A stretch of 63,887 bases of DNA, filler included, from Ferroacidibacillus organovorans (GTDB taxonomy: Bacteria > Bacillota > Bacilli > Alicyclobacillales > SLC66), in the NCBI RefSeq assembly GCF_001642725.1. It is 3 parts of 3 records of this genome, joined end to end, with 100 filler letters (N's around TTAATTAATTAA, not from the genome) between each part and the next. Parts side by side here need not be neighbours in the genome. Positions count along the whole stretch, not along the records: positions 23,280 to 45,697 come from NZ_LSUQ01000041.1; 2 more parts are not named here. One strand, given 5' to 3'. Every line of letters begins with the position of its first letter. Position 1 is the stretch's first letter. This document shows positions 7,514-46,758 of the stretch, in pieces. Made by a program: the position numbers and the translations under genes. The notes beneath the pieces are model-generated. The model was given only the letters and a program-made list of their open reading frames with translations, did not search any database and was not told where the DNA came from.

Positions 7514-8668
7514 ATGCATGGTGGAAGAGTCTATGAATATGCTGAGCAAAGAGGCGGCGCTCTGGATGAAATTGTAGATTTTAGTGCAAATCTGCATCCT
7601 TTGGGGCCTCCCGAGACTGTCACCCACGCTCTTCAAGTTGCACTTCATCTGGTGCGACACTATCCTGACTCGCGTCACTTGCGCGTGAAAGAGGTTTTGG
7701 CAAAACGCTATGACGTTGCGATGGATCATCTGGTTTGTGGCAATGGGGCGTCAGAGGTCTTGGAATTGCTGTTGCGCGTTCTGGCGCCTCAGCGAACGTG
7801 GATTATGGAACCAGCGTTTCGTGAGTACGAAGCAATCGCCCGCAGAGTTGGGTCGAAAATCGAACGCGTATCGATGATGGCTTTTGGCGACCGATTTTAT
7901 TTTCCGCTCAATCGAATTGTGGAATCGGCGCGCACTGGAGATTGCGTCGTCTTGAATACACCTCATAACCCTTCTGGAATGCACGTTTTAAAAGTCGATG
8001 TGTCGGATGCGGTCAACACTTTATTGGACCACAATGTAGATGTGATCGTCGATGAGTCATTTATCGATTTTTTAGAGAATGAAAAGTCAGAGACTTGGCT
8101 GCGTGAGTCGACGGTGAATCCTCATCTTCACACCATCCGCTCTGCCACAAAGGTGTTTGCCATTCCAGGATTGCGATTCGGGTTTGCCGTCGTTCACCCC
8201 GATGTCGCAAAAAAAATTGAGAGCGATCGCGATGGCTGGAGTGTCAATGTTCTAGCGCAAGAAGCGGCCATCGCCGCGTATCAGGATCGCGCATGGATTC
8301 TGCGGACGCAGCAGTGGCTCGTACAGCAGCATGCTTTTATTCACTCTAGTTGGGGGATGGATGCGCGCATACACGTCTATCCGTTTGCTGTGAATTTCTT
8401 TCTTGTTACGTTCTCACACGCCTCATTAAGTCGATTTATTCAAACTGAATTACACCGAAGCGGATATATTGTGAGAAATTGCGAATCGTTTCATGGATTG
8501 GGTGCATCGCATATGCGCATTGCGATTCGCACAGCAGAAGAAAATTACGCGCTCTGGAATGCGTATTTAAACGCGATGGACGCATATCAAGATCACTCCC
8601 CAATGTCATCATCTAAACGCAGAGGGGAGTCAGCGCATACTGTGGATGATGGAGACCATAAAAAATAA
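7514..8668 (+). CDS. cobD: Threonine-phosphate decarboxylase
   Basis: HGG, DFSANLHPLG, GNGASE, PHNPSG, DESFIDF, SATKVFAIPGLRFG; last gene of cob operon; 3' end overlaps recombinase. Confidence 0.88.
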   Translation: MHGGRVYEYAEQRGGALDEIVDFSANLHPLGPPETVTHALQVALHLVRHYPDSRHLRVKEVLAKRYDVAMDHLVCGNGASEVLELLLRVLAPQRTWIMEPAFREYEAIARRVGSKIERVSMMAFGDRFYFPLNRIVESARTGDCVVLNTPHNPSGMHVLKVDVSDAVNTLLDHNVDVIVDESFIDFLENEKSETWLRESTVNPHLHTIRSATKVFAIPGLRFGFAVVHPDVAKKIESDRDGWSVNVLAQEAAIAAYQDRAWILRTQQWLVQQHAFIHSSWGMDARIHVYPFAVNFFLVTFSHASLSRFIQTELHRSGYIVRNCESFHGLGASHMRIAIRTAEENYALWNAYLNAMDAYQDHSPMSSSKRRGESAHTVDDGDHKK

Positions 8669-10209
8669 ACGTGAACACTGCCGTCGCGATCGATGACCAC
8701 TCGATCAAGCACTTGACGAAGCGCCAGGCGCAGTGTGCTGTCATCGTACGGTGTCGATGGTGTAAATAAGAGTGCTGCACCTAGTGACACCGTGTCTTCT
8801 GAAGAAGTGGGTGCTTGTTCGATCTTTTTTTCGAGAAGGCGGTTCATCTCACTCTGCAATATCCTTTCTTGATCAATGAGGTTTCGCTGACTCTCCTCAA
8901 TGAGCGCAGTGGGGAAGATACCGCGACGAAACGCTTCCAGGTTGCGTTTTTGTTCTTTTCGATTGATAGAGATTTGCATTTTTAACGCTTGCATGCGCTG
9001 TTCACTTCGATCCACCCCTAAAGAGGCGATTTCCCTACGAGACTGTTGGAACTGGAGCCACCCAGAGTCTTCCTGAAATTTCCTGTTTAACACAGCAAAA
9101 ATCATTTCGCTAAGCGTGTCATAATTTGTGGCGCTGTGGTTGTCACACGCTGCCTTGTTGATCCTTTTTACTTTTGAACACACAACATACTTATAGCGCT
9201 CTCGTTCACGTTTTTTGCGCCCTGTGACAATCATGCTTCCTCCACACGATGCGCATCTCAAGAATCCGGCGAGGAGATTGGCGCTTTGTTTGACACTCTT
9301 GTTGCGCGCTTTGAATTTCATGAGATGTTGCGCGAGATCAAAGCGATCTTGACGAATAATGGGTGGATGCGCGTGAGGGATAACGATCCAATCATCCTCG
9401 CTGCGAAATTGAAGACGCTTTACGGGAAGATCAATTCTGCGAGACTTTTCGATGTCATGCATCGTCGTGCGTTTGTGCGCAATAAGTGTGCCTACGTACA
9501 CTTCGTGACGGAGAATGGCGTTTACGGTTGACGCTTGCCAGGCTGTGTTTTTCTGATACTGGTGCTTGAGTGCTGTGGGAACCTGTCGATGATTGAGTGT
9601 GTTTGCAATCTCTTTTGTTCCTTTTCCAGTAAGGTACATATCAAAAATTTCGCGCACGATAGGCGCTGTTTGTGGATCGGGGACAAGCTTTTTCGCACCG
9701 TCTTTCAAATAACCGTAGGGCGTGATGTTTCCGATGTGGCGTCCGCGGCGGGCGGATTGTCGCAGGCCGCGTTGAATCGCTCTTGACATTTCTTTGCTTT
9801 TATAGGCGGCTAACATTGCGTGAACGGTAAAAATCATTTCAGAATTGCGTCCCTCGATGGCAGAATCATAGCCCTCTTCAATACTGATCAAGCGTATTCC
9901 GTATACCTGTTCAAGTCGCTTCTTTGTGTTGAATGCGTCACTCAAGTCGCGGCTGAATCGGGAGATCGCTGTAAACAAAATGACTTCAAATCGCCCAGCC
10001 CGCGCATCAACGAGCATGCGCTGTACTTCATTTCGATGCGTCATCTCAGTCCCTGAAATACCTGCGTCATTATAAATCAGAGACGGATCTGTTTTGAGTT
10101 GAATGCGTTCGGCGTGCTCTTGGCACGTGGCAATCTGATTGGCAGGGGAGTCGCGTTGGGTGTCTGAGTCTGTCGATACGCGAACATAGATCGCGGCCCT
10201 TTTGATCAT
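8593..10209 (-). CDS. Large serine recombinase (candidate gerE-element integrase/excisase)
   Basis: AIYVRVST catalytic motif, ISRFSRD, PYGY, LLAGFLRCASCG zinc ribbon, coiled coil. Confidence 0.95.
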   Translation of the reverse strand: MIKRAAIYVRVSTDSDTQRDSPANQIATCQEHAERIQLKTDPSLIYNDAGISGTEMTHRNEVQRMLVDARAGRFEVILFTAISRFSRDLSDAFNTKKRLEQVYGIRLISIEEGYDSAIEGRNSEMIFTVHAMLAAYKSKEMSRAIQRGLRQSARRGRHIGNITPYGYLKDGAKKLVPDPQTAPIVREIFDMYLTGKGTKEIANTLNHRQVPTALKHQYQKNTAWQASTVNAILRHEVYVGTLIAHKRTTMHDIEKSRRIDLPVKRLQFRSEDDWIVIPHAHPPIIRQDRFDLAQHLMKFKARNKSVKQSANLLAGFLRCASCGGSMIVTGRKKRERERYKYVVCSKVKRINKAACDNHSATNYDTLSEMIFAVLNRKFQEDSGWLQFQQSRREIASLGVDRSEQRMQALKMQISINRKEQKRNLEAFRRGIFPTALIEESQRNLIDQERILQSEMNRLLEKKIEQAPTSSEDTVSLGAALLFTPSTPYDDSTLRLALRQVLDRVVIDRDGSVHVYFLWSPSSTVCADSPLRLDDDIGE

Positions 10210-16086: not shown

Positions 16087-17382
16087 ATGGAAATGGCAAA
16101 GTGGGAAAAGACAGCAGTGAATGTTGGCGTTCTTGAAATTGAGGTCGATGAGTCGCGAGTCGCAGAAGCGCTTGAGCGCGCATTTAAAAAAGTGGTACGG
16201 GACGTAAACGTTCCTGGTTTTCGCAAAGGCAAAGTGCCTCGCAAAATTTTCGAACGCCGCTTTGGCGTTGAGAGTCTTTATCAGGAAGCGCTCGATCTCC
16301 TTCTTCCCGAGGCGTATTCAGAGGCTGTGCTCGAGCAGGAGATTGACCCGGTTGATCGTCCGCAGATTGACATCACGCAAATGGAAGCGGGAAAACCGCT
16401 CCTGTTTAAAGCCACTGTAACGGTGCGTCCGGAAGTTACACTCGGAGAATACAAAGGCATTTCATACGAAGACAAATCGACTGAGGTAACTGATGAAGAA
16501 ATCGCAGAAGAACTTGCGACGATTCAAAAGTCACACGCCGAACTTCGAAATATTGAAGACGGGCAAATTGAAGATGGCGATAGCGTCACGATTGACTTTC
16601 GCGGCACGGTCGAGGGTGAGTTATTTGAAGGCGGAGAAGCTGAGAACTACCAACTGGAGATCGGTTCCAAAACGTTTGTCCCGGGGTTTGAAGAGCAACT
16701 GATCGGACTCGCTCTCGGACAGGAGCGCGACATTGAGATCACATTCCCGGAAGACTACCACGTCAAATCGCTCGCCGGACAAAAAGCGATCTTTCATGTG
16801 AAACTTCACGAGATCAAGCGCCGCGTCTTGCCGGAACTTGACGACGAGTTTGCAAAAGATGTCAGCGAGTTTGAGACGTTCGAAGAGTATAAGAAGTCGG
16901 TTGTTGAGAACCTGGAGCACCAACGCGCACACGAGCGCGAACATGAGATCGAGAATGAGATCATTGAAAAAGTTGTGGCGGGCGCTACGCTCGAAGTTCC
17001 TGATGTCATGGTCGAACAGGAAATTGACGCGCAACTGAATGAGTTTGGGCAACGTCTCGCCCAACAGGGAATTCCGCTTGACGCGTACAAAGAATTTACG
17101 GGCGCGACGACGGAAGAGTTGCGCCAACAATTCAGGGAAGATGCAATCCGTCGCGTAAAGACGTCGCTCGTAATTGAAGCAGTTGCCAAGGCGGAGGCGC
17201 TGGAAGTTTCCGATGAAGCGGTGGATCTTGAACTGCAAAAGTTGGCTGACTCATCAGGACTGCCATTTGACCGCGTAAAGGAAATTTTCCTCACGCGCGA
17301 CCCTGGGTTCATCAGCCTGCGCGCCGACTTGCAAATGAAAGCCGCGATTCGCCTCCTCGTCGAACATGGCGTCAAGGCGTAA
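16087..17382 (+). CDS. tig: Trigger factor
   Basis: PGFRKGKVP signature and FKBP domain FVPGFEEQLIG. Confidence 0.98.
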   Translation: MEMAKWEKTAVNVGVLEIEVDESRVAEALERAFKKVVRDVNVPGFRKGKVPRKIFERRFGVESLYQEALDLLLPEAYSEAVLEQEIDPVDRPQIDITQMEAGKPLLFKATVTVRPEVTLGEYKGISYEDKSTEVTDEEIAEELATIQKSHAELRNIEDGQIEDGDSVTIDFRGTVEGELFEGGEAENYQLEIGSKTFVPGFEEQLIGLALGQERDIEITFPEDYHVKSLAGQKAIFHVKLHEIKRRVLPELDDEFAKDVSEFETFEEYKKSVVENLEHQRAHEREHEIENEIIEKVVAGATLEVPDVMVEQEIDAQLNEFGQRLAQQGIPLDAYKEFTGATTEELRQQFREDAIRRVKTSLVIEAVAKAEALEVSDEAVDLELQKLADSSGLPFDRVKEIFLTRDPGFISLRADLQMKAAIRLLVEHGVKA

Positions 17383-17475
17383 AATTGTGTAGAATAAAGA
17401 AGATGTCGAAGGGTGAAGCTTCTTTAAGCACAGCCCTATTTGACAAGATCCATCAGTCGGGAAACTGGAGGTCAT

Positions 17476-18069
17476 ATGATGAACCTTGTACCTATGGTCA
17501 TTGAACAGACCAACCGCGGCGAGCGTGCGTACGATATTTATTCGAGACTCTTGAAGGATCGAATTATTTTTATCGGCACGCCGATTGACGACTTTGTCGC
17601 GAACTCTGTCGTTGCGCAGTTGCTCTTCTTGGCCTCTGAAGATTCCGACAAGGATATCAGTATCTACATCAACAGTCCAGGCGGATCTGTGACGGCGGGG
17701 ATGGCGATTTTTGACACCATGCAATATATTAAGCCGGATGTATCGACCATTTGCGTCGGACTTGCGGCGAGCATGGGGTCGCTGTTGTTGACGGCGGGCG
17801 CCAAAGGGAAACGGTTTGCACTCCCCAATAGCGAGATCATGATTCATCAACCGCTGGGTGGCGTGCGCGGGCAGGCTTCAGACATTAAAATCCATGCCGA
17901 GTGGATCCTCAAAACAAGAAACAAATTGAACCTTATCTATGCTGAACGAACAGGACAACCTCTGTCGCAGATTGAACTTGATACGGATCGCGACAATTGG
18001 ATGAGTGCAGAAGAGGCTAAAGCGTACGGGCTCATCGATGAGGTGGTCTTGCGTCCGAACGCAAGATAG
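17476..18069 (+). CDS. clpP: Clp protease proteolytic subunit
   Basis: [30 protein letters not shown]. Confidence 0.98.
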
Positions 18070-18080
18070 GGGGGAAAGGC

Positions 18081-19361
18081 GTGTTTAAATTTAACGACGA
18101 CAAGGGTCAACTCAAATGCTCGTTCTGTGGAAAAACGCAAGATCAGGTGCGCAAGTTGGTTGCTGGACCTGGTGTGTATATCTGTGATGAATGCATCGAG
18201 TTGTGCAATGAGATCGTCGAAGAGGAACTGGGCGACGAAGAAGAGTTTGAACTCAAGGATGTGCCAAAGCCCGTCGAGATTAAATCGATTCTTGACTCGT
18301 ATGTGATCGGTCAGGAACGCGCAAAAAAATCGCTGGCTGTGGCTGTTTACAATCACTACAAACGGATTAACACGGGATCAAAAAATGAAGATGTGGAATT
18401 GTCCAAGAGCAACATTCTTCTGATTGGGCCTACTGGATCTGGAAAAACACTTCTCGCACAGACGCTTGCGCGAATTTTAAACGTACCTTTTGCAATAGCG
18501 GATGCCACGTCGCTTACAGAAGCAGGCTATGTGGGCGAGGACGTTGAGAACATTCTCTTAAAGCTGATTCAAGCGGCTGACTACGATGTTGAGAAGGCAG
18601 AACGCGGTATCATCTATATCGATGAGATTGATAAAATCGCTAGAAAGAGCGAAAATCCATCGATCACGCGGGATGTCTCAGGAGAGGGTGTTCAACAAGC
18701 TCTCCTCAAAATTCTCGAAGGTACGGTTGCGAGCGTTCCGCCTCAAGGTGGACGCAAGCATCCGCATCAAGAGTTTATTCAAATCGACACAAGCAATGTC
18801 TTGTTTATCTGCGGAGGCGCGTTTGATGGCATGGATGCGCTGATCAAACGAAGATTGGGCAAAAAAGTGATCGGGTTTGGAACGTCGGAAGAATCGCGCC
18901 AAGCGGTGGCTGATAAGGCGGTTTTGTCAAAGGTCTTGCCTGAAGATCTTTTGAAATTCGGCTTGATTCCAGAATTCGTCGGCCGTCTGCCTGTCATTAC
19001 GACGCTTGAAGCGCTCGATGAGGCGGCACTTAAACAAATTTTGACCGAACCGAAAAATGCTCTCGTGAAACAGTATCAGCGTTTGCTTGATATGGATTCC
19101 GTCGAGCTTGAATTCTCGGATGAGGCGTTATCTGAGATTGCGATTGAGGCAATCAAACGGAATACGGGCGCGCGCGGTTTGCGTGCGATCATCGAAGGAA
19201 TCATGCTTGATGTGATGTACGATCTGCCGACGCGTACAGATGTGAAAAAATGCATCGTAACGCGTGACACGGTGGTCCAGCGCGAAGAACCGATTCTCGT
19301 GCTTGATTCGGGGCCGGTGACCGACAAGAGCAAGAAGAAGAAAAAAGAAGAGACTGCATAG
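18081..19361 (+). CDS. clpX: Clp protease ATP-binding subunit
   Basis: CSFCGK zinc finger, [18 protein letters not shown]. Confidence 0.98.
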
Positions 19362-37589: not shown

Positions 37590-37723
37590 GAGATACGAAA
37601 AACCTGTCGCGCGCGAGGCCTATTGATTTGAAATGGGTGTATGTCAGGGTGCATTTGAACCAAGAGCTACCCAGAGCATCCGCATACGTTGAAGAATGAG
37701 GAATGAAAGGAGGTTTACGCGTA

Positions 37724-38045
37724 ATGTGCACGTATGGTCAATGTCAAAGGGCGGTTGGACAGTGGGTGCAGTTCTCGACACCGTGGGGGGCTCACCATGG
37801 GATTGTGCGTCAGGTGACACAGCAAGGTGTTTTGATGTCGGTGCCACGTACTTATGCGCCGCAGGGACTTGTGAATGGAATGAATTTCTCAGGCAAATCG
37901 GATGAAGAGCGCTTGGATCTCGCGCTCGCCGCATACGGATATGGTCCGGGGATGGGTGGACGTCCCGGTTACGGGGGTGGCTACGGCGCGCCCGGCTATG
38001 GTTGGTGGGGCGGCGGTTGGTGGTGGTGGTGGTTAGCGTTCGCTA
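37724..38045 (+). pseudogene. 5' part of a Gly/Tyr/Trp-rich spore-coat-like gene, probably interrupted at about 38040
   Basis: AAAGGAGG RBS; MCTYGQC...GYGGGYGAPGYGWWGGGWWWWWLAFA, then an abrupt AT-rich run-on antisense to the recombinase 3' end (ORF formally to 38125). Confidence 0.6.
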
Positions 38046-38053
38046 GTTATCTC

Positions 38054-39520
38054 TTATACACCCCCATGAAAATGAATGAGAATGCGATCTGGATAAACGG
38101 TGATTTCTTTTATGATCGTGCGTAGCAGTTCTTTTCTTTCCTGTACCGTTGCAATCCCCCACGTCGCGCGAAATGAGCCTAGAATGGTTTTAAGCGTGGC
38201 GAGATCCAGGGATTTGGCATTCATTTGTTCCAATGCATGAATCTTCTCGGCGAATAGAGTTTCCTTGCTGCGGAGTTCGTTCAAACGATCTTTAAGGACA
38301 TTTGATTCAATATCACCATTTTCAAATGCATTCATCCATCGATTTTTCCGTGAAGTGATTTTTGATATTTCATTACGTAGAGCATCCATTTCAGCCTGAT
38401 CATCTGATCTTAATGTAAACGTCGACATATCACGACTTAAATCCTGATGATACTGTTCTAAGTGTGTCAAAACAGCATTTTCAAGGTGACTCTCTTTTTG
38501 CCGAGGCATATCACAAAGTCCTGAATGGATTCTCTCGACGCATGTATAATAGCGTCTAGGCTCACTTTCCAATTTATTCTTCTTGTATCGCGTATCTCCT
38601 GACATTGAATAGCCACATTTACCACAGCGCAGGATTCCTGTCAACGAATAGGTGCCCGTACCACTTCGACTCGGCATTGTTTTGCGTTTACTTCTTAGTT
38701 CCTGTGCACGATTAAAATTCTCTAGACTAAGAATTGCTTCGTGATTCCCCTCTTCGATCATTGAATTCGTTTGTCTCCTTCCCTTTAGATCTCTGTATCC
38801 ATAACGCACCATGCCGCAGTAAAGCGGGTTTTGTAGAACATATTTTAGATTGTTCAATGTCCATCTTTTATTGGACGCAAGCTGTGGATGCGTAGGATCA
38901 TTGAGCCACTTCAATATCTTGGGTGTGCCGCTTCCTGCCAGATAGCGATCGTAAATTTCTTTAACGATTGCTGCTTCAGCATGATTGATTTTCAGATTTC
39001 CATTGTTGTAATCATATCCAAAAGGTCGATGACCCCCTGACCATTTCCCTTGCCGAGTCATTTCAATCTGTCCCATTTTAGTGCGTTCAGCGAGATTTTC
39101 ACGTTCCCACTGTGCCATCGCCCCGACGAGTGTGATAAAGAGTCGGCCGATCGCCGTTGTCGTATCATACACTTCTGTGGCGCTCCGAAATTTCGTTTGA
39201 TGGCGATCGAAGTAGTCTAGAAGCGTATGGAGATCAGAAACAGAGCGTGTTAGTCGATCTAATTTATAGACAAGCACAATTTTATGATCAGAATGGTCAG
39301 CTTTTAAATCATTGAGCAAGCGCTTTAACTCAGGCCGATCCATGTTTTTGGCGCTGACGCCTTCTTCGATGTAGCTATCTTGGATGACCCAGTCTTGCGA
39401 TAATGCATAGGCCTTTAACCTCTCACGCTGCGCGTCAATCGAATATCCCTCATCAGCCTGTTCATCCGTCGAAACACGTATATAAATACGCGCAAACCAT
39501 GTTTCGCTCATGGCGATCAC
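38054..39520 (-). CDS. Large serine recombinase (boundary integrase)
   Basis: IYIRVSTDEQ, YKLDRLTRS, AQWERE, PFGY, LTGILRCGKCG. Confidence 0.96.
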   Translation of the reverse strand: MIAMSETWFARIYIRVSTDEQADEGYSIDAQRERLKAYALSQDWVIQDSYIEEGVSAKNMDRPELKRLLNDLKADHSDHKIVLVYKLDRLTRSVSDLHTLLDYFDRHQTKFRSATEVYDTTTAIGRLFITLVGAMAQWERENLAERTKMGQIEMTRQGKWSGGHRPFGYDYNNGNLKINHAEAAIVKEIYDRYLAGSGTPKILKWLNDPTHPQLASNKRWTLNNLKYVLQNPLYCGMVRYGYRDLKGRRQTNSMIEEGNHEAILSLENFNRAQELRSKRKTMPSRSGTGTYSLTGILRCGKCGYSMSGDTRYKKNKLESEPRRYYTCVERIHSGLCDMPRQKESHLENAVLTHLEQYHQDLSRDMSTFTLRSDDQAEMDALRNEISKITSRKNRWMNAFENGDIESNVLKDRLNELRSKETLFAEKIHALEQMNAKSLDLATLKTILGSFRATWGIATVQERKELLRTIIKEITVYPDRILIHFHGGV

Positions 39521-39561
39521 CCTAATTTTGAAGTTGGCCTCTGAAAAATAAATAGGACAGA

Positions 39562-39590
39562 CACAGAAAAAGTGATCGCAGCATACGATA
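39562..39590 (+). promoter_or_regulatory. Sigma-K type promoter
   Basis: CACA (39562-39565) - 16 nt - CATACGATA (39582-39590) fits the B. subtilis sigma-K consensus ACA-N16-CATANNNTA. Confidence 0.65.
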
Positions 39591-39618
39591 CGTTAATGCC
39601 TGAACCTTAGTGGGGAGC

Positions 39619-39786
39619 GTGATCGTGTTGGATAACAATACATGTATATATCTTGTTATCCAGGCGAATTCCCCCTCGGAAGAAGCACTTATGCGTTTCA
39701 ACGAAGAAATTCGCCGCATTATCGAACGCGCCATTCAAGATGGGCGAATTGCTACCCATGATCTTATTGATTCCAAAACGCCGTAG
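39619..39786 (+). CDS. 55-aa protein, candidate recombination directionality factor
   Basis: GGGGAG RBS; MIVLDNNTCIYLVIQANSPSEEALMRFNEEIRRIIERAIQDGRIATHDLIDSKTP; divergent from integrase; below ORF-track cutoff. Confidence 0.6.
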   Translation: MIVLDNNTCIYLVIQANSPSEEALMRFNEEIRRIIERAIQDGRIATHDLIDSKTP

Positions 39787-39932
39787 TTATACTAAAGATT
39801 TATAATTCCGCCAACTACGTTGGACAAGCTTATAAAAAACAATGCCCAAAAGGATTTCCTCTTACCTATCTTAGTGGCTGACGATTTGAGATACGACAGG
39901 AAATCCCTAACTTTACTTGGGCAAAAGTCCAC

Positions 39933-39972
39933 ATAAAAAAGCAGATGCCATGGATGATGATGCGGCATCTGC
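39933..39972 (-). terminator. Terminator downstream of XRE gene
   Basis: GCAGATGCC / GGCATCTGC stem with T tract on the minus strand. Confidence 0.65.
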
Positions 39973-40072
39973 GTGATGAATCTTTTAAAATCGTGATTTC
40001 ATAGGGTGAAACGGGAAGATAACGATAGGTTAAACCTCATACGGGTGTGAAGATCATTCGTGAACGTGTTCA

Positions 40073-40300
40073 TCATGATTCGGATGGGGGCATTTGTTCG
40101 AAACTAATTTTCAGCATGACGTCGAGTGCGGTGGTGATTTTTTCAAGGCTCTCCAAGCTTACATTACCGATTCCACGTTCAATCATACCGACATATCGTT
40201 TTGAAAGTCCTGACGCTTGTGCCAAGGTCTCTTGGCTCATGCGCTGTTTGGTGCGGAGTTGACGAATTCTCATCCCCACTTCTCGACATAAATCACTCAG
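40073..40300 (-). CDS. XRE family helix-turn-helix regulator (possible CTG start)
   Basis: IRQLR...MSQETLA...YVGMIERG..NVSL; GAGGTG RBS 7 nt before CTG at 40300. Confidence 0.88.
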   Translation of the reverse strand: MSDLCREVGMRIRQLRTKQRMSQETLAQASGLSKRYVGMIERGIGNVSLESLEKITTALDVMLKISFEQMPPSES

Positions 40301-40439
40301 ACGGGTTCACCTCGATTTATATGGATGGATCTATGGTAAAAGCTTATCATCTGTCTCTTAAAAATTCATGCATGACGGATAACTATAGTGCATATACCGA
40401 AAATCCTTTGGACACCATGTACGCCAAGGGAGTGAAGGG

Positions 40440-40604
40440 ATGGAGAGGAATCGAATTCGTGTTCGCTCGATTCAATATGTGTACGATCCAAAGGCCGGTC
40501 GTCTGTGGCTGGATGTGTTAGCGCAAGCGCTCTATCGCTCGTGTCAAGATCATAAAATGGATACAAAGCACGAGCCCAACGAGGATGTGAATCCATGCGA
40601 ATGA
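40440..40604 (+). CDS. 54-aa protein coupled to tandem recombinases
   Basis: GGGAG RBS; MERNRIRVRSIQYVYDPKAGRLWLDVLAQALYRSCQDHKMDTKHEPNEDVNPCE; stop overlaps the recombinase start region (ATGA 40601-40604). Confidence 0.6.
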   Translation: MERNRIRVRSIQYVYDPKAGRLWLDVLAQALYRSCQDHKMDTKHEPNEDVNPCE

Positions 40605-42130
40605 CGGTGGCGTATTACCGAAGTTCTCTCGAACAACAGGAAAATTCCGTTCCGATGCAAAAGGACAACGCAAAACTTTATGCACAAAAGCACGGAATGA
40701 CCCTTCAAGATCACTACGACGATGAGGGGAAGTCGGCACGAAAAAAATCAGAGATCGAACGGCCCGCGATGCATCGATTGCGACAGGACATCCGCTCTAA
40801 TTTAATTGGGACGATTATTGTCTATAAACGGGATCGTCTGGCGCGAAGAGCGAGTGAGTACATGGAATTTTATCGTCTGTGCCGCAAATTTGACGTGAAG
40901 ATCATTTTTACGTCTGGAAAGGAATACCCGGTGTTTTACTCACCGTTCGGGGAATTCATTGAACTCATTTACGCGGGAATTATTGAGCGTGAGGCGGAAG
41001 TAATCGTTGAGCGTCTACGTGAAACGCAAATCACGAATTTCGTGAACAAGAAGACGGTGGGAAATCTACCGTATGGCCTGGTGGCGATTGAAGGGAAACA
41101 AGATAAACCGGAGATTCATTTTCAGTCAGACGAGGTAAAGGAAGAGATCAAAGGGATTTATTCGGACTTTCTCCAGTGGTCGACTACGCGAGGGGAGCAA
41201 AAATTCTCTGCCTTTGTTCAGCTGCAAAATGAGAGACATCCGAGACGGGAGCGCTTGGAATCCGAGGAGGAGGAGATAGAATACGATGAAGGAGGCGCTA
41301 AGGAACCAAACGCCAGATGGACCGATACCAATTTGCGTGGTCTTTTGACGAATTCACTCTACATGGGAAAACATCGCAAAACATGGGAGGATCAAATGTA
41401 CGAAGTGGATCGGCCTGAGTGCGCGATCATTTCTCCTGAAGCATGGGAAGCGACGAATCAAGCGATGAAGCCGTTTCTTGCGGTTCAACATGAAACCAAG
41501 AAACGAGAATTTGTTCTTGAGGGATTGATCGTTTGTGAATTTTGCAAACATCCTCTCGTGGGGAGAACATCGTGGCGAAAACAGGAACCGATGGATGGGT
41601 ATTATTGTCCCACCAAAACGTGTCCTGTGCGTATCTCCGCAACGAAATGTGAGGAAAAAATTGATGAAGAAGTCGTGGGGTTTCTGTCCATCCTCCTAAA
41701 GGAGAATGGGGATGCATTGTATCGGGAGGTGATGGCAGAGGAACGCAGGCGAATTAAAGCGGAGATGGAGAAGCTTCAACATCAGCGGACGATTCTACAG
41801 ACGCGTTTAAAGAAGGATGTATCGCAGTATATGCAAACGCGCGTGAGTATGCCTGAGATTTTTCAAACGAAAACGAATCTCGACAATCTCCATCATACGA
41901 TGCACAGACTGGAGGCAGAACTTCGTTCATTGCATGCGTTTCCGCTGGGGACAAAGCGGCGAAACATCCGCATTCAAGATCTAAAGATCGAGCTGAAGCA
42001 AGGGTCGGCCGTGCGTCGGCGAGAACTACTCGCGGATCTCCTTTTGGAAGTGCGGGTCAGCAAAAATACGATCGAGGCTCTTGTGTTTCGCCACCCATTT
42101 CAAAAGGTGGTGTCCCATGTCTCTTCATGA
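40595..42130 (+). CDS. Large serine recombinase (first of tandem pair)
   Basis: VAYYRSS, YKRDRLAR, LPYG, LEGLIVCEFC...YYCPTKTC, coiled coil. Confidence 0.9.
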   Translation: MRMTVAYYRSSLEQQENSVPMQKDNAKLYAQKHGMTLQDHYDDEGKSARKKSEIERPAMHRLRQDIRSNLIGTIIVYKRDRLARRASEYMEFYRLCRKFDVKIIFTSGKEYPVFYSPFGEFIELIYAGIIEREAEVIVERLRETQITNFVNKKTVGNLPYGLVAIEGKQDKPEIHFQSDEVKEEIKGIYSDFLQWSTTRGEQKFSAFVQLQNERHPRRERLESEEEEIEYDEGGAKEPNARWTDTNLRGLLTNSLYMGKHRKTWEDQMYEVDRPECAIISPEAWEATNQAMKPFLAVQHETKKREFVLEGLIVCEFCKHPLVGRTSWRKQEPMDGYYCPTKTCPVRISATKCEEKIDEEVVGFLSILLKENGDALYREVMAEERRRIKAEMEKLQHQRTILQTRLKKDVSQYMQTRVSMPEIFQTKTNLDNLHHTMHRLEAELRSLHAFPLGTKRRNIRIQDLKIELKQGSAVRRRELLADLLLEVRVSKNTIEALVFRHPFQKVVSHVSS

Positions 42131-43643
42131 AATCATGGAACGTTTGAGGCAGCCGGATACGCTTTTGCGTGCCGCGTTTTATGGCCGTCATTCGACCAAG
42201 AATCAAGAAATGATGATGCAAGAGAATACCGCCGAGCGATTTTGCAAGAAGTATGGTTGTGAAATCGTGGAAAAATACCTCGATCCGGATGTATCGGCTA
42301 CGAAAGTGAAAATGACCCAACGCAAAGCGTTGTTGCGGATGATCAATGATGCGAGTGATGGCAAATTTGATGTCATCCTTGTGTACAGTGACAGTCGTTT
42401 GGCGCGTGATCCGATTGAACATGCTCAAATCCGCATCGCTTTGCGGGGCATCCCTGTCTTTCTGTGTGACACCGAAACCTTGTACAATCCCAAGAATGTG
42501 GAAATTTTAACGCAATTGATCCGCGATGGCGTTTCCAAATTTGAAGTGGATCAGACCTCGGAACGAACCCGGGATACGTTTCTTTACATGGTGAAACACG
42601 GTGAAGCGATCAATGGCAGGTTGCCCTACGGGTATGTAAAACGGGAGGGTCGTTTTGTTATTGAATCTTTTCAACAAGCCGAACACATTCGGTCCATTTT
42701 TATGTGGTATTCAAACGGCGACGGATTCTCGGCGATCGCGAAACGCCTGGGGTGGCTCAAAGCGGATCGCGTCACACCAAATAAAGAGCGGGTCAAGTCG
42801 ATTGTCTTGAATCCCTTTTATGCCGGTTATCGTAGCATGGACAAAGTCAAAAAGAAGGCGCGCATGAGCTTTCAACCGCTCGCGCAGTGGATCATGGGTT
42901 CCGATCCTCACATCGAGCCGGTACTTTCGTTTGAAGAGTGGAGAACGTGCTACGATCTGTATGAGAAAAAACAGAAAAGGGAAATCGCGCCGAAGACTTT
43001 TAAGACACCGTTTCTATTGGCGGGGCTTCTCGTCTGTGGAGATTGCAGGAAAAGAGGGATGGAAAACTTTTTGCGCGGCCAAAATCGCCAAACACGCTCA
43101 ACATTTGGAAGGACAGGATCTCGGTATTATGAATGTCCGGAATGCAGACTCTGCATGGACATGGGGGCATTGCATCAAATTCTGATCGATGACGTTTTTC
43201 ATCCGTGGGTCTCGAAAAATGAGCGGCAGTGGGAGACGGCGGTCGAACGGGTGAAAGAAAAGATCGATCACGAGAAAGCGGCGTTGGCGGCGGCGATCGA
43301 ACATGCAGAAATCAAGATCGTAAAGGATCAATTGGAGCACGAGGTTGCGCGCGATCACCAGAAAGGTCTCGATAATGCCAGTGAACTGTGGGGTGTGATG
43401 GACGAATACTGCCGTGTGCTCAAGGAACAGATGGACAAAACGCGAGAAGAGCAGGATGAATTAAAGCAGATGCAGCGACGCCTAAACGCGTGGGTCACCG
43501 ATGAGAGCGCACTGCGAGAGGTGCGCTTGGATCTCTTGAACGAACAAGATTTCCGCAGGCTGACGCTTGCGTTGATTACCGAGGTAGTGGCGACATCGGT
43601 TGAGGATCAAACGATTGAACTGGATGTCGTAGGTCGATGGTAG
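42117..43643 (+). CDS. Large serine recombinase (second of tandem pair)
   Basis: AAFYGRHST, SRLARD, LPYGY, LNPFYAG, LLAGLLVCGDC...YECPEC; overlaps upstream gene by 14 nt. Confidence 0.9.
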   Translation: MSLHEIMERLRQPDTLLRAAFYGRHSTKNQEMMMQENTAERFCKKYGCEIVEKYLDPDVSATKVKMTQRKALLRMINDASDGKFDVILVYSDSRLARDPIEHAQIRIALRGIPVFLCDTETLYNPKNVEILTQLIRDGVSKFEVDQTSERTRDTFLYMVKHGEAINGRLPYGYVKREGRFVIESFQQAEHIRSIFMWYSNGDGFSAIAKRLGWLKADRVTPNKERVKSIVLNPFYAGYRSMDKVKKKARMSFQPLAQWIMGSDPHIEPVLSFEEWRTCYDLYEKKQKREIAPKTFKTPFLLAGLLVCGDCRKRGMENFLRGQNRQTRSTFGRTGSRYYECPECRLCMDMGALHQILIDDVFHPWVSKNERQWETAVERVKEKIDHEKAALAAAIEHAEIKIVKDQLEHEVARDHQKGLDNASELWGVMDEYCRVLKEQMDKTREEQDELKQMQRRLNAWVTDESALREVRLDLLNEQDFRRLTLALITEVVATSVEDQTIELDVVGRW

Positions 43644-43858
43644 GGTATATTCTGCGATGATGTTGAATCGGGGGGCAGAATGAGAGTGGGGGTGTTCTGA
43701 GAATAGATCGTTTGTAAATGACGAGAGGTTTTCGTGTCATTTTAATGAAAATGGAGAGAATACGCCGCCATTTCTTCTTCAGCTTTGTTGCCTTGGAGAA
43801 CGGCAATTCATACTAGTGTAACGATGAATAGCCATGCAGCACTCAGGTTGCACCGCTA

Positions 43859-43884
43859 TTGCAGATAAGCACCCGATAGTTGAA
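43859..43884 (-). repeat. Candidate recombination site, downstream end of nuclease cassette
   Basis: Minus strand TTCAACTAT-CGGGTGCT-TATCTGCAA; same TT-N7-CGGG-N11-AA geometry as 45310-45335. Confidence 0.65.
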
Positions 43885-43886
43885 TA

Positions 43887-43912
43887 ACAGCAGGGGCAAT
43901 TTGCTCTTGCTG
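43887..43912 (-). terminator. Hairpin closing the nuclease cassette
   Basis: ACAGCAAGAGCAA / TTGCCCCTGCTGT stem on the minus strand directly abutting the 26-bp site. Confidence 0.65.
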
Positions 43913-43996
43913 TGTAGCTGAAAAATTACGGTTTGGTCACCACCAACATTATTTCGATGGCATTAATTGTAATTTCCTTACATACGAAACCCTCAG

Positions 43997-45208
43997 TCAG
44001 TCTGACAACAAAATCGGTAAGCGACGATCACGTGACATTAAACGAAGTACGCTCATATCCAAGACAAACGCAGACTTGTCCTGTATAACAGTTTCATGAA
44101 GCAGACCTTTTTCTAAAGCCAAGTCCATAATTCGTTTTCCACCGACAGCCTTCGTGATTGTTGCTCGACTGACTGGACGATTATTTCTCTTATCAACTAA
44201 TAAGCCTTCATCATCAGCATATTGATTCAGTATTATGTGTCCAGCATGTCGGAGGGCTCGTTTGAACGTAACCTCAGCAATTCTTTCCTGAGCCTCCTCA
44301 TCTTTGGTCATCATCGCTTTGACTTTGTTTTCAACCCTAGGCGATCTCTGTTTTTGAAGAATTCCAATAAATTTTTCAGCGAACTCATCTAAGTCGAACA
44401 CGGTCTTGATGTCGGCAATCGTTAAATACACGAAACGGTTAAACCTCGAAAAGAACACCCCTATTTTGCCTATCTCAACGGGGAAATCTCTATCGAACTT
44501 CGATAGTATGTAGTAACCGATAAGTTGCCGCATGTGCTCAGCTTGATAACCTAAACGTCGTACCGTCTTTATATCGACCAACATGGTATCAATAACAAAA
44601 TCCGCATCTGCTCCACCGACCAACGCGGACATGTCCCCGAATGTTGGATTGTACAATATGCGATTTTCCTTCTTAAAAAAAGCTTCAACATCCATCGTTT
44701 TGTCTGCAATTTGAGACAAATCATGCACTTCACGGGAGTCTACATCGTAACCGTTTTGACGGACGTATCCTGACCTGTAGTAAGCCTCCATGTAGCCCAA
44801 AAATACACAAGCCTCATACAGCCCGCGTTCATCCACATTGTCTCCCCGACTGTACTGCCTTCTGATTTCCCTGCTTATATTGTACTTTTCTGTTATCTCA
44901 GGTAATGAATCTTCCATTCCAAATTGTGTGAGCCCCAATATAAGACGACGCATCGCCTGGTCCGCGACCACGACGGGTTCTTCATAGTCTTGATTGATTC
45001 GTTGCAAATAAGCACGTAGCCAGTAATCATAAGCCATGCCGACGTTACCCGCGTTTGCACCTTGAACCAAATCTGCTACAGGGGGTATACCTTTTGGAAA
45101 GGGGGCACCATCATCATTCAGGGTTTTACATAGACCTTTGAAATTCGGCAGCGTCGAGAACAAAGATTTAACTTCGGCGTTATCACTTAACATGCTTGTC
45201 AACGACAA
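43997..45208 (-). CDS. Hypothetical protein with PD-(D/E)XK nuclease-like motif
   Basis: GGADADFVIDTMLVDIKT...QLIGY; GGAGG RBS before TTG 45208; AT-rich. Confidence 0.7.
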   Translation of the reverse strand: MSLTSMLSDNAEVKSLFSTLPNFKGLCKTLNDDGAPFPKGIPPVADLVQGANAGNVGMAYDYWLRAYLQRINQDYEEPVVVADQAMRRLILGLTQFGMEDSLPEITEKYNISREIRRQYSRGDNVDERGLYEACVFLGYMEAYYRSGYVRQNGYDVDSREVHDLSQIADKTMDVEAFFKKENRILYNPTFGDMSALVGGADADFVIDTMLVDIKTVRRLGYQAEHMRQLIGYYILSKFDRDFPVEIGKIGVFFSRFNRFVYLTIADIKTVFDLDEFAEKFIGILQKQRSPRVENKVKAMMTKDEEAQERIAEVTFKRALRHAGHIILNQYADDEGLLVDKRNNRPVSRATITKAVGGKRIMDLALEKGLLHETVIQDKSAFVLDMSVLRLMSRDRRLPILLSD

Positions 45209-45309
45209 TTTGTCCACCTCCAATATTCCGTTAACAATATAACAACGTGTCTAGGATATCATAACTGACCCACCAGAACCTCGATTTCCCGTCAAAAAAC
45301 GTATTCATC

Positions 45310-45335
45310 TTCAGCTAACCTGCCCGAATGCGCAA
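45310..45335 (-). repeat. Candidate recombination site, upstream end of nuclease cassette
   Basis: Minus strand TTGCGCATT-CGGGCAGG-TTAGCTGAA. Confidence 0.65.
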
Positions 45336-45697
45336 GAGCCACCGTGGTGACAATCATATACGGGTTAAATGATGGTGATTTTGCAATTGCTCAACCAATG
45401 GCTGAAAACCAACGGGGACAAATTTGCCGATGTTTGTGTATCTAAAATTACAGTTGGTCGCGTATTTCAGAACGGACCGTTTACAGCTCGCGTGACAAAC
45501 TGAAATCCTTTCGTGTCTTGCAACTGGCGCTGCAACTCGAAACGAAGAAGGAACACACGATAGAATCTATATTCGGCACTTTTCTGAAGAATCCCTTTGC
45601 AAGCAAGAGACGAAAGGGCGAGTGTCGTTTTGGTACGGATTTTTTCATTTATCGATTTTGGACGGGACATGAGGATTTTAAGGAACATGGACAGGCC

Positions 45698-45852: not shown

Positions 45853-45897
45853 ACGGCGGTGCTCGATTCGAGAGAATCGGGTGACGCCGTGCTTTTT
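45853..45897 (+). terminator. Terminator of a gene upstream of contig start
   Basis: CACGGCG...CGCCGTG stem with inner CTCGATTC/GAATCGGG pairing, then TTTTT. Confidence 0.65.
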
Positions 45898-46014
45898 AAT
45901 GTCCGCGCGTACTCGGAGCGCGCGGGTGCGTCAGCGGGTGTCTTCTATCCTGGGAAACGCGCACATGGTATGATCCTACTAGAAAGTTTGTCAGGTGGGG
46001 AGTATAGGAAATCC

Positions 46015-46758
46015 ATGGAATATCTTTCATTCAGCCGCTTATCCTTGCTTGAGACGTGCGGACTGCGCTTTTACTTTGAGTATGTCGAGAAGCGAAGCCC
46101 GGTCGATCCGGTACCGCTGCACCACGCGAAGTTTGGCACACTATTGCACAGTCTCTATGAACAACACGCGAATTCTGCAGGTCATGATTCTTATGAAGTG
46201 TTGAAAAAACGATATGATGTAGACTTCCCCAAACTCGTATCGCTTTTTCCTGATCGCGACGCGGCGGTCCAGTTTTACAAGAAAGGGCTCGCGGCGATTC
46301 AGCGCTTTAGCCGCTATCTTGTCAAGGATGTGGTGGCATCGGAAAAGGAGTTTCTGATTGAGACATCGACTGGGGTGCCCCCTCTCAAAGGGTTTATCGA
46401 TCGTCTCATCTATTCTGAAGATCACGGGTATCTCGTCGCCGATTTGAAGACGGGAAAGGCATTCTCTGGCGGTGACCGAAAAAAACGCCGACAACTGGTC
46501 GTCTACTCCATCGCGTGTGAATCCGAGTACGGGACGCCTGCTGACAGCGGATACTTTGACTTTGTCGTACAGGGGAATCGCGCATGGGTTGACATTGCTG
46601 AGGAAGATCGCGCGGAGGTTCGCGCGTGGGTGAGAGAAAAGTGGCATGAGATTGAGATGGAGCGCTTTGACGCGAAGTATTCGCGTGCGTTTTGTTCCGC
46701 ATACTGCCCGTTTCGAAGTGAGTGTGACACATTTTTACAGCATCATCGCGCGGGATAA
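46015..46758 (+). CDS. RecB/Cas4-like PD-(D/E)XK nuclease with 1+3 Cys arrangement
   Basis: LSFSRL...C, GTLLH, GFIDRL, DLKTG, QLVVY, CSAYCPFRSEC. Confidence 0.88.
   Translation: MEYLSFSRLSLLETCGLRFYFEYVEKRSPVDPVPLHHAKFGTLLHSLYEQHANSAGHDSYEVLKKRYDVDFPKLVSLFPDRDAAVQFYKKGLAAIQRFSRYLVKDVVASEKEFLIETSTGVPPLKGFIDRLIYSEDHGYLVADLKTGKAFSGGDRKKRRQLVVYSIACESEYGTPADSGYFDFVVQGNRAWVDIAEEDRAEVRAWVREKWHEIEMERFDAKYSRAFCSAYCPFRSECDTFLQHHRAG

Follow-up and report, generated by a model that had tools for sequence, protein, structure and literature searches.

The 63,887-base window analysed here consists of three contigs of the 3.03-Mb, 98-contig genome of the spore-forming acidophile Ferroacidibacillus organovorans (G000) and contains a group of three large serine recombinases (LSR1, LSR2 and LSR3) that belongs to a larger mobile element. 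We think it probable that this element is a single integrative island of about 18.4 kb, inserted by attP x attB exchange at a central TT dinucleotide, with LSR1 as the presumed integrase and a regulator of the XRE type, a small open reading frame (ORF) termed orfS, LSR2 and LSR3 as a second, co-inherited unit. The island is real and well delimited and is of the same kind as gin of Bacillus cereus and other elements with several large serine recombinases (LSRs); its interest lies in the four-gene module around the recombinase pair and in its Cas9 cargo, while the mechanism of the pair is inferred. Contig C41 (NZ_LSUQ01000041.1) occupies positions 23280-45697 of the window and is followed, after the second linker, by the unrelated contig C51. 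The G+C content of C41 drops at about 38.0 kb from 0.55-0.58 to 0.42-0.49 and stays low up to the end of the contig at 45697; the LSR core at 38054-43643 is only the recombinase part of the larger island. The features concerned are as follows.

37703-38040, plus strand: 5' part of the target gene, encoding a small G/Y/W-rich protein that is conserved among relatives of Alicyclobacillus; the frame runs on into the island to 38125.
38017-38062, no strand: attL, with the host B arm, the central TT at 38039-38040 and the P' arm of the element.
38054-39520, minus strand: LSR1, a canonical large serine recombinase (Pfam Resolvase, Recombinase and Zn_ribbon_recom; PHROG 95 integrase, E 4e-139).
40073-40279, minus strand: XRE-type HTH regulator, divergent from the operon of the pair (NCBIfam; PADLOC 'control protein', E 2e-16; PHROGs regulator).
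40440-40604, plus strand: orfS, conserved and about 50 aa long, reaching to the start of LSR2.
40595-42130, plus strand: LSR2, a GirA-type large serine recombinase with the motif YYRSS.
42081-43643, plus strand: LSR3, a GirB-type large serine recombinase with the motif YGRHS; likely start at 42117.
43997-45223, minus strand: 408-aa protein with a PD-(D/E)XK-like core (PADLOC PDC-S61, E 4e-10, and RTasPDDEXK, E 3e-7; PHROG 34041, function unknown).
45224-45697, no strand: start of a non-coding/small-ORF module of about 1.7 kb that continues on contig C25.
23180-23279 and 45698-45797: artificial linkers, N runs around a 12-base stop-codon motif, non-biological.

A first-pass annotation of this DNA had described one recombinase on the minus strand, an XRE regulator and a divergent, overlapping pair with the motifs YYRSS and YGRHS. 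ORFs and Pfam domains bear out this arrangement, both motifs are present, and the regulator is recognised by three databases. The Pfam Resolvase domain is found in LSR1, LSR2 and LSR3 with E values of 7e-42, 2.4e-23 and 1.3e-19, and the Recombinase domain with 1.8e-19, 5.9e-7 and 1.8e-9, respectively; the alignment to the solved SPbeta and A118 integrases is full-length, as expected for the architecture of large serine recombinases. The mutual identity of the three proteins is 25-29%. The overlap of LSR2 with LSR3 amounts to 14 bases if LSR3 starts at 42117 and to 50 if it starts at 42081. The same annotation had assigned a catalytic serine and zinc-ribbon cysteines to all three. The serine is upheld, the residue aligned with it being invariant within the families of LSR2 (S11) and LSR3 (S26). 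The zinc-ribbon model of Pfam exceeds its cut-off only in LSR1, falls below it in LSR2 (20 bits against 25.3) and has no match in LSR3, yet cysteines are invariant in the family alignments of both LSR2 (C314, C338) and LSR3 (C307, C310, C340, C343). A hidden Markov model built from 12 orfS homologues from outside the window found orfS as its sole match among 59442 ORFs of the genome (E 5.9e-6).

The left boundary was located by comparison with the sister genome G001, in which the site is uninterrupted and with which homology ends at attL. The target-gene frame in the window departs from the family pattern after residue 113 and then runs through 27 codons of island sequence; the missing last codons and stop are found at C25:10885-10925. 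Intact homologues in six related genomes end with a conserved Trp-rich hydrophobic tail, and the copy in G001 has a one-base frameshift in the run of Trp codons. All 86 database homologues of the target protein are unnamed or hypothetical, the named ones being from Alicyclobacillus, and the aligned upstream regions of the gene contain a weak, unpersuasive -10-like motif. The target thus differs from that of gin, as had been proposed: insertion is at the 3' end of a small gene for a conserved hypothetical protein and not in gerE.

The two junctions share a 9-base core with the central TT, at 38039-38040 in the window (C41:14760-14761) and at C25:10883-10884. When attP is rebuilt from them, the P arm (C25:10861-10882) and the P' arm are complementary around the TT at 17 of 22 positions, a value that was reached at none of 200000 random genome positions, and no further copy of either arm occurs elsewhere in the genome. 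Judged by its sequence, the rebuilt site has the form of a serine-integrase attP, an imperfect palindrome. An LSR of the integrase type usually has its own attP, of inverted-repeat form, at the end of its gene. Because the P' arm overlaps the stop codon of LSR1, we infer that LSR1 would be the integrase for this site, and insertion would have occurred by LSR-mediated attP x attB exchange at the TT into the last codons of the small conserved gene.

Public sequencing runs, examined as assembled contigs, add two states of the same site. Two contigs of run X5 pass from the host flank beyond 38043 straight into the letters of the B' arm, and a 5740-base contig of run X6, which opens 24 bases into the host B arm, has diverged versions of LSR1, LSR2 and LSR3. 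The former is an empty site in a diverged strain from an independent metagenome, and the latter is the left part of a variant island at the same site in another metagenome. Contig depth in a third run, X1, is uneven (about 8 versus 130-230) and does not follow the island borders.

The right boundary lies on contig C25. The last 121 bases of C41 are exactly the first 121 of C25 and are shared by no other contig, and G001 is colinear over the join at 92-97% identity. The island therefore comprises window positions 38041-45697 and C25:122-10882 (7,657 + 10,761 bases, about 18.4 kb) and contains, in this order, LSR1, XRE, orfS, LSR2, LSR3, the PD-(D/E)XK-like protein, trans-activating CRISPR RNA (tracrRNA)-cas9-cas1-cas2, a CRISPR array and an IS3-family transposase pair. 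Low G+C content persists along C25. Cas9 has 1117 aa (TIGR01865, 762 bits), and Cas1 and Cas2 are also encoded. The array, separated from cas2 by only 98 bases, has 47 repeats of 36 nt and 46 spacers (45 unique), and a repeat copy upstream of cas9 at C25:1423-1465 is likely to be the anti-repeat of the tracrRNA. With cas9, cas1, cas2, array and anti-repeat present and csn2 and cas4 absent, the system is complete and type II-C-like. No spacer matches the genome itself or any locus fetched, and Rfam detects nothing on the island. Searches with Cas9 gave matches in 4 of 40 relatives, with a best identity of 53% and none in the sister genome. A general tie between Cas9 and such islands was considered and rejected because no LSR is found within about 18 kb of the Cas9 loci of G025 and G029. 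The 408-aa protein, which has no match in Pfam or NCBIfam, is a candidate for further defence cargo. A second PD-(D/E)XK ORF, at 45859-46758, was dropped as an island member since it sits on contig C51.

Between attL and attR, searches of Pfam, NCBIfam, PADLOC and PHROGs revealed no phage structural, lysis, replication, relaxase, coupling-protein or type IV secretion family. What is matched is the integrase, the regulator, the Cas proteins and the transposase, plus the 408-aa protein through a PHROG of unknown function. The earlier statement that no phage or conjugation genes are visible thus holds for 38054-45697 and for the island as a whole (Pfam, PADLOC, PHROGs). It had come with a caveat, namely that the pair might belong to a prophage or an integrative and conjugative element (ICE) whose other genes lie past the contig break. 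Past the break we find CRISPR-Cas9, IS3 and attR, and since both boundaries are known and enclose no phage genes, the caveat does not apply. That the island is the decayed end of a prophage or ICE with its functional genes elsewhere, or that the C41-C25 join is an assembly artefact, we consider highly improbable. The island does reach a contig end, assemblies do fragment near 45.4-45.7 kb, and the genome holds many islands and, in its 3.03 Mb, 18 matches to the LSR 'Recombinase' domain; against this stand the 121-base overlap unique to C41 and C25, the single symmetric attP formed by the att arms of the two contigs, and the lack of any phage, relaxase or type IV secretion family between two boundaries that are both in hand.

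LSR2 and LSR3 are related to GirA and GirB of gin. In a tree of 73 LSRs (IQ-TREE quick, LG+G4, SH-aLRT support only; ORFs below 380 aa and loci L039-L042 left out), LSR2 falls into a clade with 99% support together with F082 of the Bacillus thuringiensis plasmid pMC319 and the GirA-like protein of G111, a genome of the B. cereus group; LSR3 falls into another 99% clade with F083 of pMC319 and the GirB-like protein of G111. The use of the names GirA and GirB is anchored in passages of PMC5595907, which state that the pMC319 pair is 83-86% identical to GirA/GirB of another Bacillus gin. LSR2 scores 150 bits against F082 and LSR3 223 bits against F083, with cross scores of 44-46. Identity to the G111 proteins is 28.8% over 518 aa for LSR2 (E 7e-48) and 33.9% over 378 aa for LSR3 (E 3e-67). 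The G111 pair is 87% identical to that of pMC319; gerE in this genome is cut at the 9-base site of the gin paper, and the third LSR is located at the opposite edge of the element. A database search with LSR2 returned 24 relatives, the best at 68% identity from a metagenome and those from Bacillaceae at 25-31%, and a plasmid search with the same protein matched a recombinase of pMC319.

LSR1 has a different affiliation. It belongs to a clade of 13 (97% support) together with spoVR-associated LSRs that excludes the GirC-like third LSR of G111, to which LSR1 is no nearer than to any other LSR (26% identity, E 2e-17). The comparison with the Gir proteins outlined in the first-pass annotation therefore places the pair, by way of pMC319 and G111, in the GirA and GirB clades and sets LSR1 apart from the GirC-like protein. 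The resemblance to gin is real for the pair and does not extend to the 'canonical integrase'; the suggestion of a related class of element, rather than gin itself, fits this outcome.

Passages of PMC5595907 allow a closer comparison with gin of B. cereus ATCC 10987. Both elements are low in G+C and phage-free, with three serine recombinases of which two form an operon; the gin recombinases have a mutual identity of 22-26%. In both, the third LSR is at the element end by the att site, attP is an imperfect inverted repeat round a central dinucleotide, and there is defence cargo, restriction-modification in gin and CRISPR-Cas9 here. The island differs from gin in that its third recombinase is not GirC-like, its target is not gerE, its host is an Alicyclobacillus relative, and LSR1 is divergent from the pair and near it, whereas the corresponding gene in gin is distant. 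Pfam gives no DHH/RecJ match in the island, while a recJ homologue is conserved in the gin elements of B. cereus. No GirX-like protein or other candidate for a recombination directionality factor (RDF) was identified in the island, as judged without a GirX sequence for comparison.

The nearest relatives of LSR1 are found at split spoVR genes. spoVR is present at four of the seven scanned islands with three recombinases (triad loci): its halves flank L021, one half abuts L028 and L029, and the gene is intact beside L024. Only 5 bases separate the end of the LSR1-like gene of L028 from the N-terminal half of spoVR. The genome under study offers a case of its own on contig C22 (7825-28848, partly covered by L014), where spoVR is in three pieces (Pfam positions 3-62, 53-270 and 260-405), from which we conclude that two separate elements interrupt it. 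The region carries two LSR1-type recombinases, at 8022-9536 (minus strand) and 16777-18306 (plus strand), with two more LSRs upstream. The former ends 18 bases from the first spoVR piece, and the latter follows the second piece at a distance of 1.1 kb. In L021, L028 and L029 of Bacillaceae, spoVR is interrupted at the position of this second cut. G000 has Spo0A, and a sporulation-linked lifestyle for LSR1 is plausible. Given where its nearest relatives are, LSR1 may also excise the island during sporulation.

These geometries bear on the question of which recombinase made the insertion. An alternative that we regard as unlikely is that the GirA/GirB-type pair, maybe with orfS, integrates and excises the island here, as CcrAB does for the staphylococcal cassette chromosome (SCC), and that LSR1 is a passenger or serves another purpose. 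Islands in which no third LSR occurs within 10 kb show that the pair can be the sole recombinase nearby; pMC319 carries the pair alone; and both G000 and G001 have a girB-like remnant some 50 bases away from attB. However, it is the 3' end of LSR1 that the P' arm overlaps, the usual spot for the attP of an LSR's own, and the same end geometry is seen for the LSR1 paralogue at spoVR and for L028. The pair is 2.5 kb inside the element, and according to passages of PMC5595907 girAB is dispensable for the excision of gin.

The distribution of the pair was surveyed with a profile of the LSR2 family, which fetched 28 loci (a single-sequence query with LSR2 for related loci gave none). A full GirA-like/GirB-like pair is present in 13 of the 28, two more are truncated at the locus end, and 13 are distant. 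An LSR1-like gene is located upstream on the opposite strand in nine loci (L016, L020, L021, L023-L026, L028, L029), and the pair is without a third LSR within 10 kb in six (L015, L017, L018, L019, L027 and the short contig L022). The neighbourhood survey envisaged earlier shows that at least 16 further loci contain the XRE-orfS-pair module, for the most part within islands that hold defence or resistance genes. A gene with HTH_3 or HTH_31 occupies the XRE position in 5 of 7 triad loci scanned (L016, L020, L021, L029, L017). All pair loci examined have a small ORF (45-65 aa) whose end coincides with the start of the GirA-like gene; orfS was found in the window and 14 loci, in pMC319 (as F081) and in G111, G118, G119 and G138. 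The passages of PMC5595907 hold no mention of an ORF of this type. Three complete genomes from the same order as the window, G118, G119 and G138, have a third LSR in tandem with orfS and the pair.

The cargo varies. Among the triad loci we found CBASS (L016, L029), an OLD-type nuclease (L024), AAA_21 (L025), Mrr (L028) and a toxin-antitoxin system with ParA (L021). Other loci carry OLD with UvrD (L015), HamA (L018), type I restriction-modification (L019), a STAND NTPase (L027) and ars genes (L017), and the complete genomes add a ThsB-TIR protein with a caspase (G138) and a metal ATPase with ars genes (G118). L016, L020 and L017 also contain RecJ-like genes. The LSR clades share the same locus groupings, L024/L025/L028 and L016/L020/L029, in all three positions, as expected of a co-inherited module. 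As a side observation, L024 and L025 are two separate three-recombinase modules in one Bacillaceae metagenome-assembled genome.

The survey also bears on whether the island is one element. It could be composite, an LSR1 'intervening element' captured or entered by a separate GirAB-type element with its own ends inside the 18.4 kb, but this seems quite improbable to us. A composite origin was proposed for gin by its authors (passages of PMC5595907), LSR1 and the pair have different nearest relatives, LSR1-type genes occur without the pair on C22 and pairs without an LSR1-type gene elsewhere, and contig depth in X5 is very different between the pair region (45) and the LSR1 region (about 1-3). 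Against it, the island contains no internal direct or inverted repeats and no extra att-like arms. The whole 18.4 kb is absent from the sister genome at this site, and in Bacillaceae the three genes have a single order in nine loci and matching clade groupings.

We return to the reading of a single island with two recombination units. The divergent XRE gene and orfS-LSR2-LSR3 would constitute a second, co-inherited unit of the GirA/GirB family, in which LSR2 and LSR3 most likely form a heteromeric, CcrAB-like pair with orfS as an accessory, and the pair would serve the horizontal movement or accretion of such islands. The parallel with SCC is one of design: a cassette of cargo free of phage and conjugation genes, two LSRs in an operon, insertion in the 3' end of a conserved gene and a tendency of remnants to accrete at the site. 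The proteins are not Ccr equivalogs, the best scores against the NCBIfam models of CcrA, CcrB and CcrC being 203, 51 and 75 bits with cut-offs of 700-900, and the island differs from SCC in that its target is not rlmH (orfX), a third LSR is present and no direct repeats of the SCC site type are seen. pMC319 (CP003693) has the same order of regulator (minus strand), small ORF (F081) and two overlapping LSRs (MC28_F082/F083), but its pair is plasmid-borne, has no third LSR nearby and shows an identity of only about 28-35%. The serine-integrase triplets of streptococcal ICEs, compared by description only in passages of PMC4701971, resemble the island in that three LSRs are inherited as one module with a clade for each position and insert within genes; they differ in having conjugation modules and in that their genes are arranged in tandem, in one orientation, at the element end. 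The elements that interrupt sporulation genes (skin/sigK, SPbeta/spsM, spoVFB and spoVR, from passages of PMC6957869 and PMC5595907) share the LSR at the element edge, and the LSR1 clade itself occurs at split spoVR. The known ones are prophage-like with a single recombinase, whereas the island has three, and its target is only a hypothetical gene.

More tentatively, XRE-orfS-GirA-GirB might be a self-contained heteromeric machine, equipped with a small accessory protein of its own, that mobilises a widespread, unnamed family of Bacillota islands and swaps their cargo, with an interchangeable third recombinase that picks the target and provides developmental excision. The cargo swapped would comprise CRISPR-Cas9, CBASS, Gabija-like, Hachiman, Thoeris, restriction-modification and metal resistance genes, and the target of the third recombinase would often be a sporulation gene; this extension, too, we put forward with reserve. 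If true, it would amount to a two-tier recombinase system that shuttles defence islands.

Several points weigh against the island as we interpret it. The public assemblies break near 45.4-45.7 kb, where the contig join passes. The function of the target gene is blank in Pfam, NCBIfam, the names of homologues and the protein atlas, and these sources yield no sporulation role for it. The pair, and not LSR1, could have made the insertion. LSR1 lies outside the LSR1-like clade of Bacillaceae, with a paralogue from the same genome as its sister, and the link between LSR1 and the pair may therefore have arisen independently. The depth of the X5 contigs suggests that the pair also lives in other contexts without LSR1. 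The island lacks a homologue of the conserved 76-aa ORF that Bacillaceae loci have between XRE and the LSR1-like gene, and consequently no RDF candidate is supported. Finally, our interpretation does not account for a B' arm copy on contig C34 or for the girB-like remnant next to attB in G000 and G001.

With this locus and the survey, the GirA/GirB pair is no longer a B. cereus curiosity but belongs to a conserved module of four genes: regulator, small ORF and two LSRs. Bacillaceae, Caryophanaceae and Alicyclobacillus relatives all have it, chromosomally or on a plasmid, in some cases with a third LSR and in others without, and accessory cargo is nearly always next to it. A search of the literature collection used here on GirA, GirB, GirC and large serine recombinases returned no paper later than 2017 on the role of GirA/GirB, and the loci collected here provide concrete constructs and sites for testing it. 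The island itself is a natural example of a small, cleanly delimited and recombinase-bounded element that carries a complete Cas9 system and its long array; it is absent from the sister species and bears on the spread of CRISPR-Cas among spore formers.

A number of further observations concern the insertion site and its surroundings. C34:19893-19976 (L013:11894-11977) is a second copy of the target's last codons and terminator (38 of 42 bases aligned, 97% identical) that starts precisely where the crossover falls. The arm in front of it is not the same, though similar in appearance, and the genome has no second copy of the 5' part of the gene. The girB-like remnant, a 3' third about 50 bases past the target stop in G000 (C25:10920-11166) and G001 (L011:10543-11155), is 84% identical to LSR3 of the island, the two remnants being 91% identical to each other, and points to an older visit by a related element. 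The module of about 1.7 kb with small ORFs (window 45320-45697 and C25:1-1323) is 92-97% identical between G000 and G001, more alike than the core flanks (81-84%). In G001 it lies 2.8 kb beyond the empty site and adjoins a giant YD/RHS-like ORF, and 209 bases of the G001 sequence are absent from G000. After attR, about 7.5 kb of low G+C content (C25:11293-19978) encode a phosphotransferase of the APH family, a HAD protein, three GNAT proteins, a histidine phosphatase, a pentapeptide-repeat protein and PadR, and this stretch looks like an older accreted block. Taken together, the C34 copy, the remnant, the 1.7-kb module and the block after attR point to repeated visits and decay at the site.

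Other LSRs were encountered along the way. One in the window, at 8593-10209 (minus strand), is the sister (96% support) of the third, GirC-like recombinase of the G111 gin. The 3' end of the window gene runs into the end of an aminotransferase gene (7514-8668), where a low-G+C stretch of about 8-13 kb has its border. In two complete genomes of the Alicyclobacillus type, at L073:13420-15406 (G138) and L078:9166-11258 (G119), an LSR directly adjoins the C-terminal remainder of a glycoside hydrolase family 18 gene (profile positions about 205-316), which from these two junctions appears to be another recurrent LSR target. C15:27461-30383 of G000 is a distant tandem LSR pair, related to the tandem LSR triplets of L030, L035 and L037.

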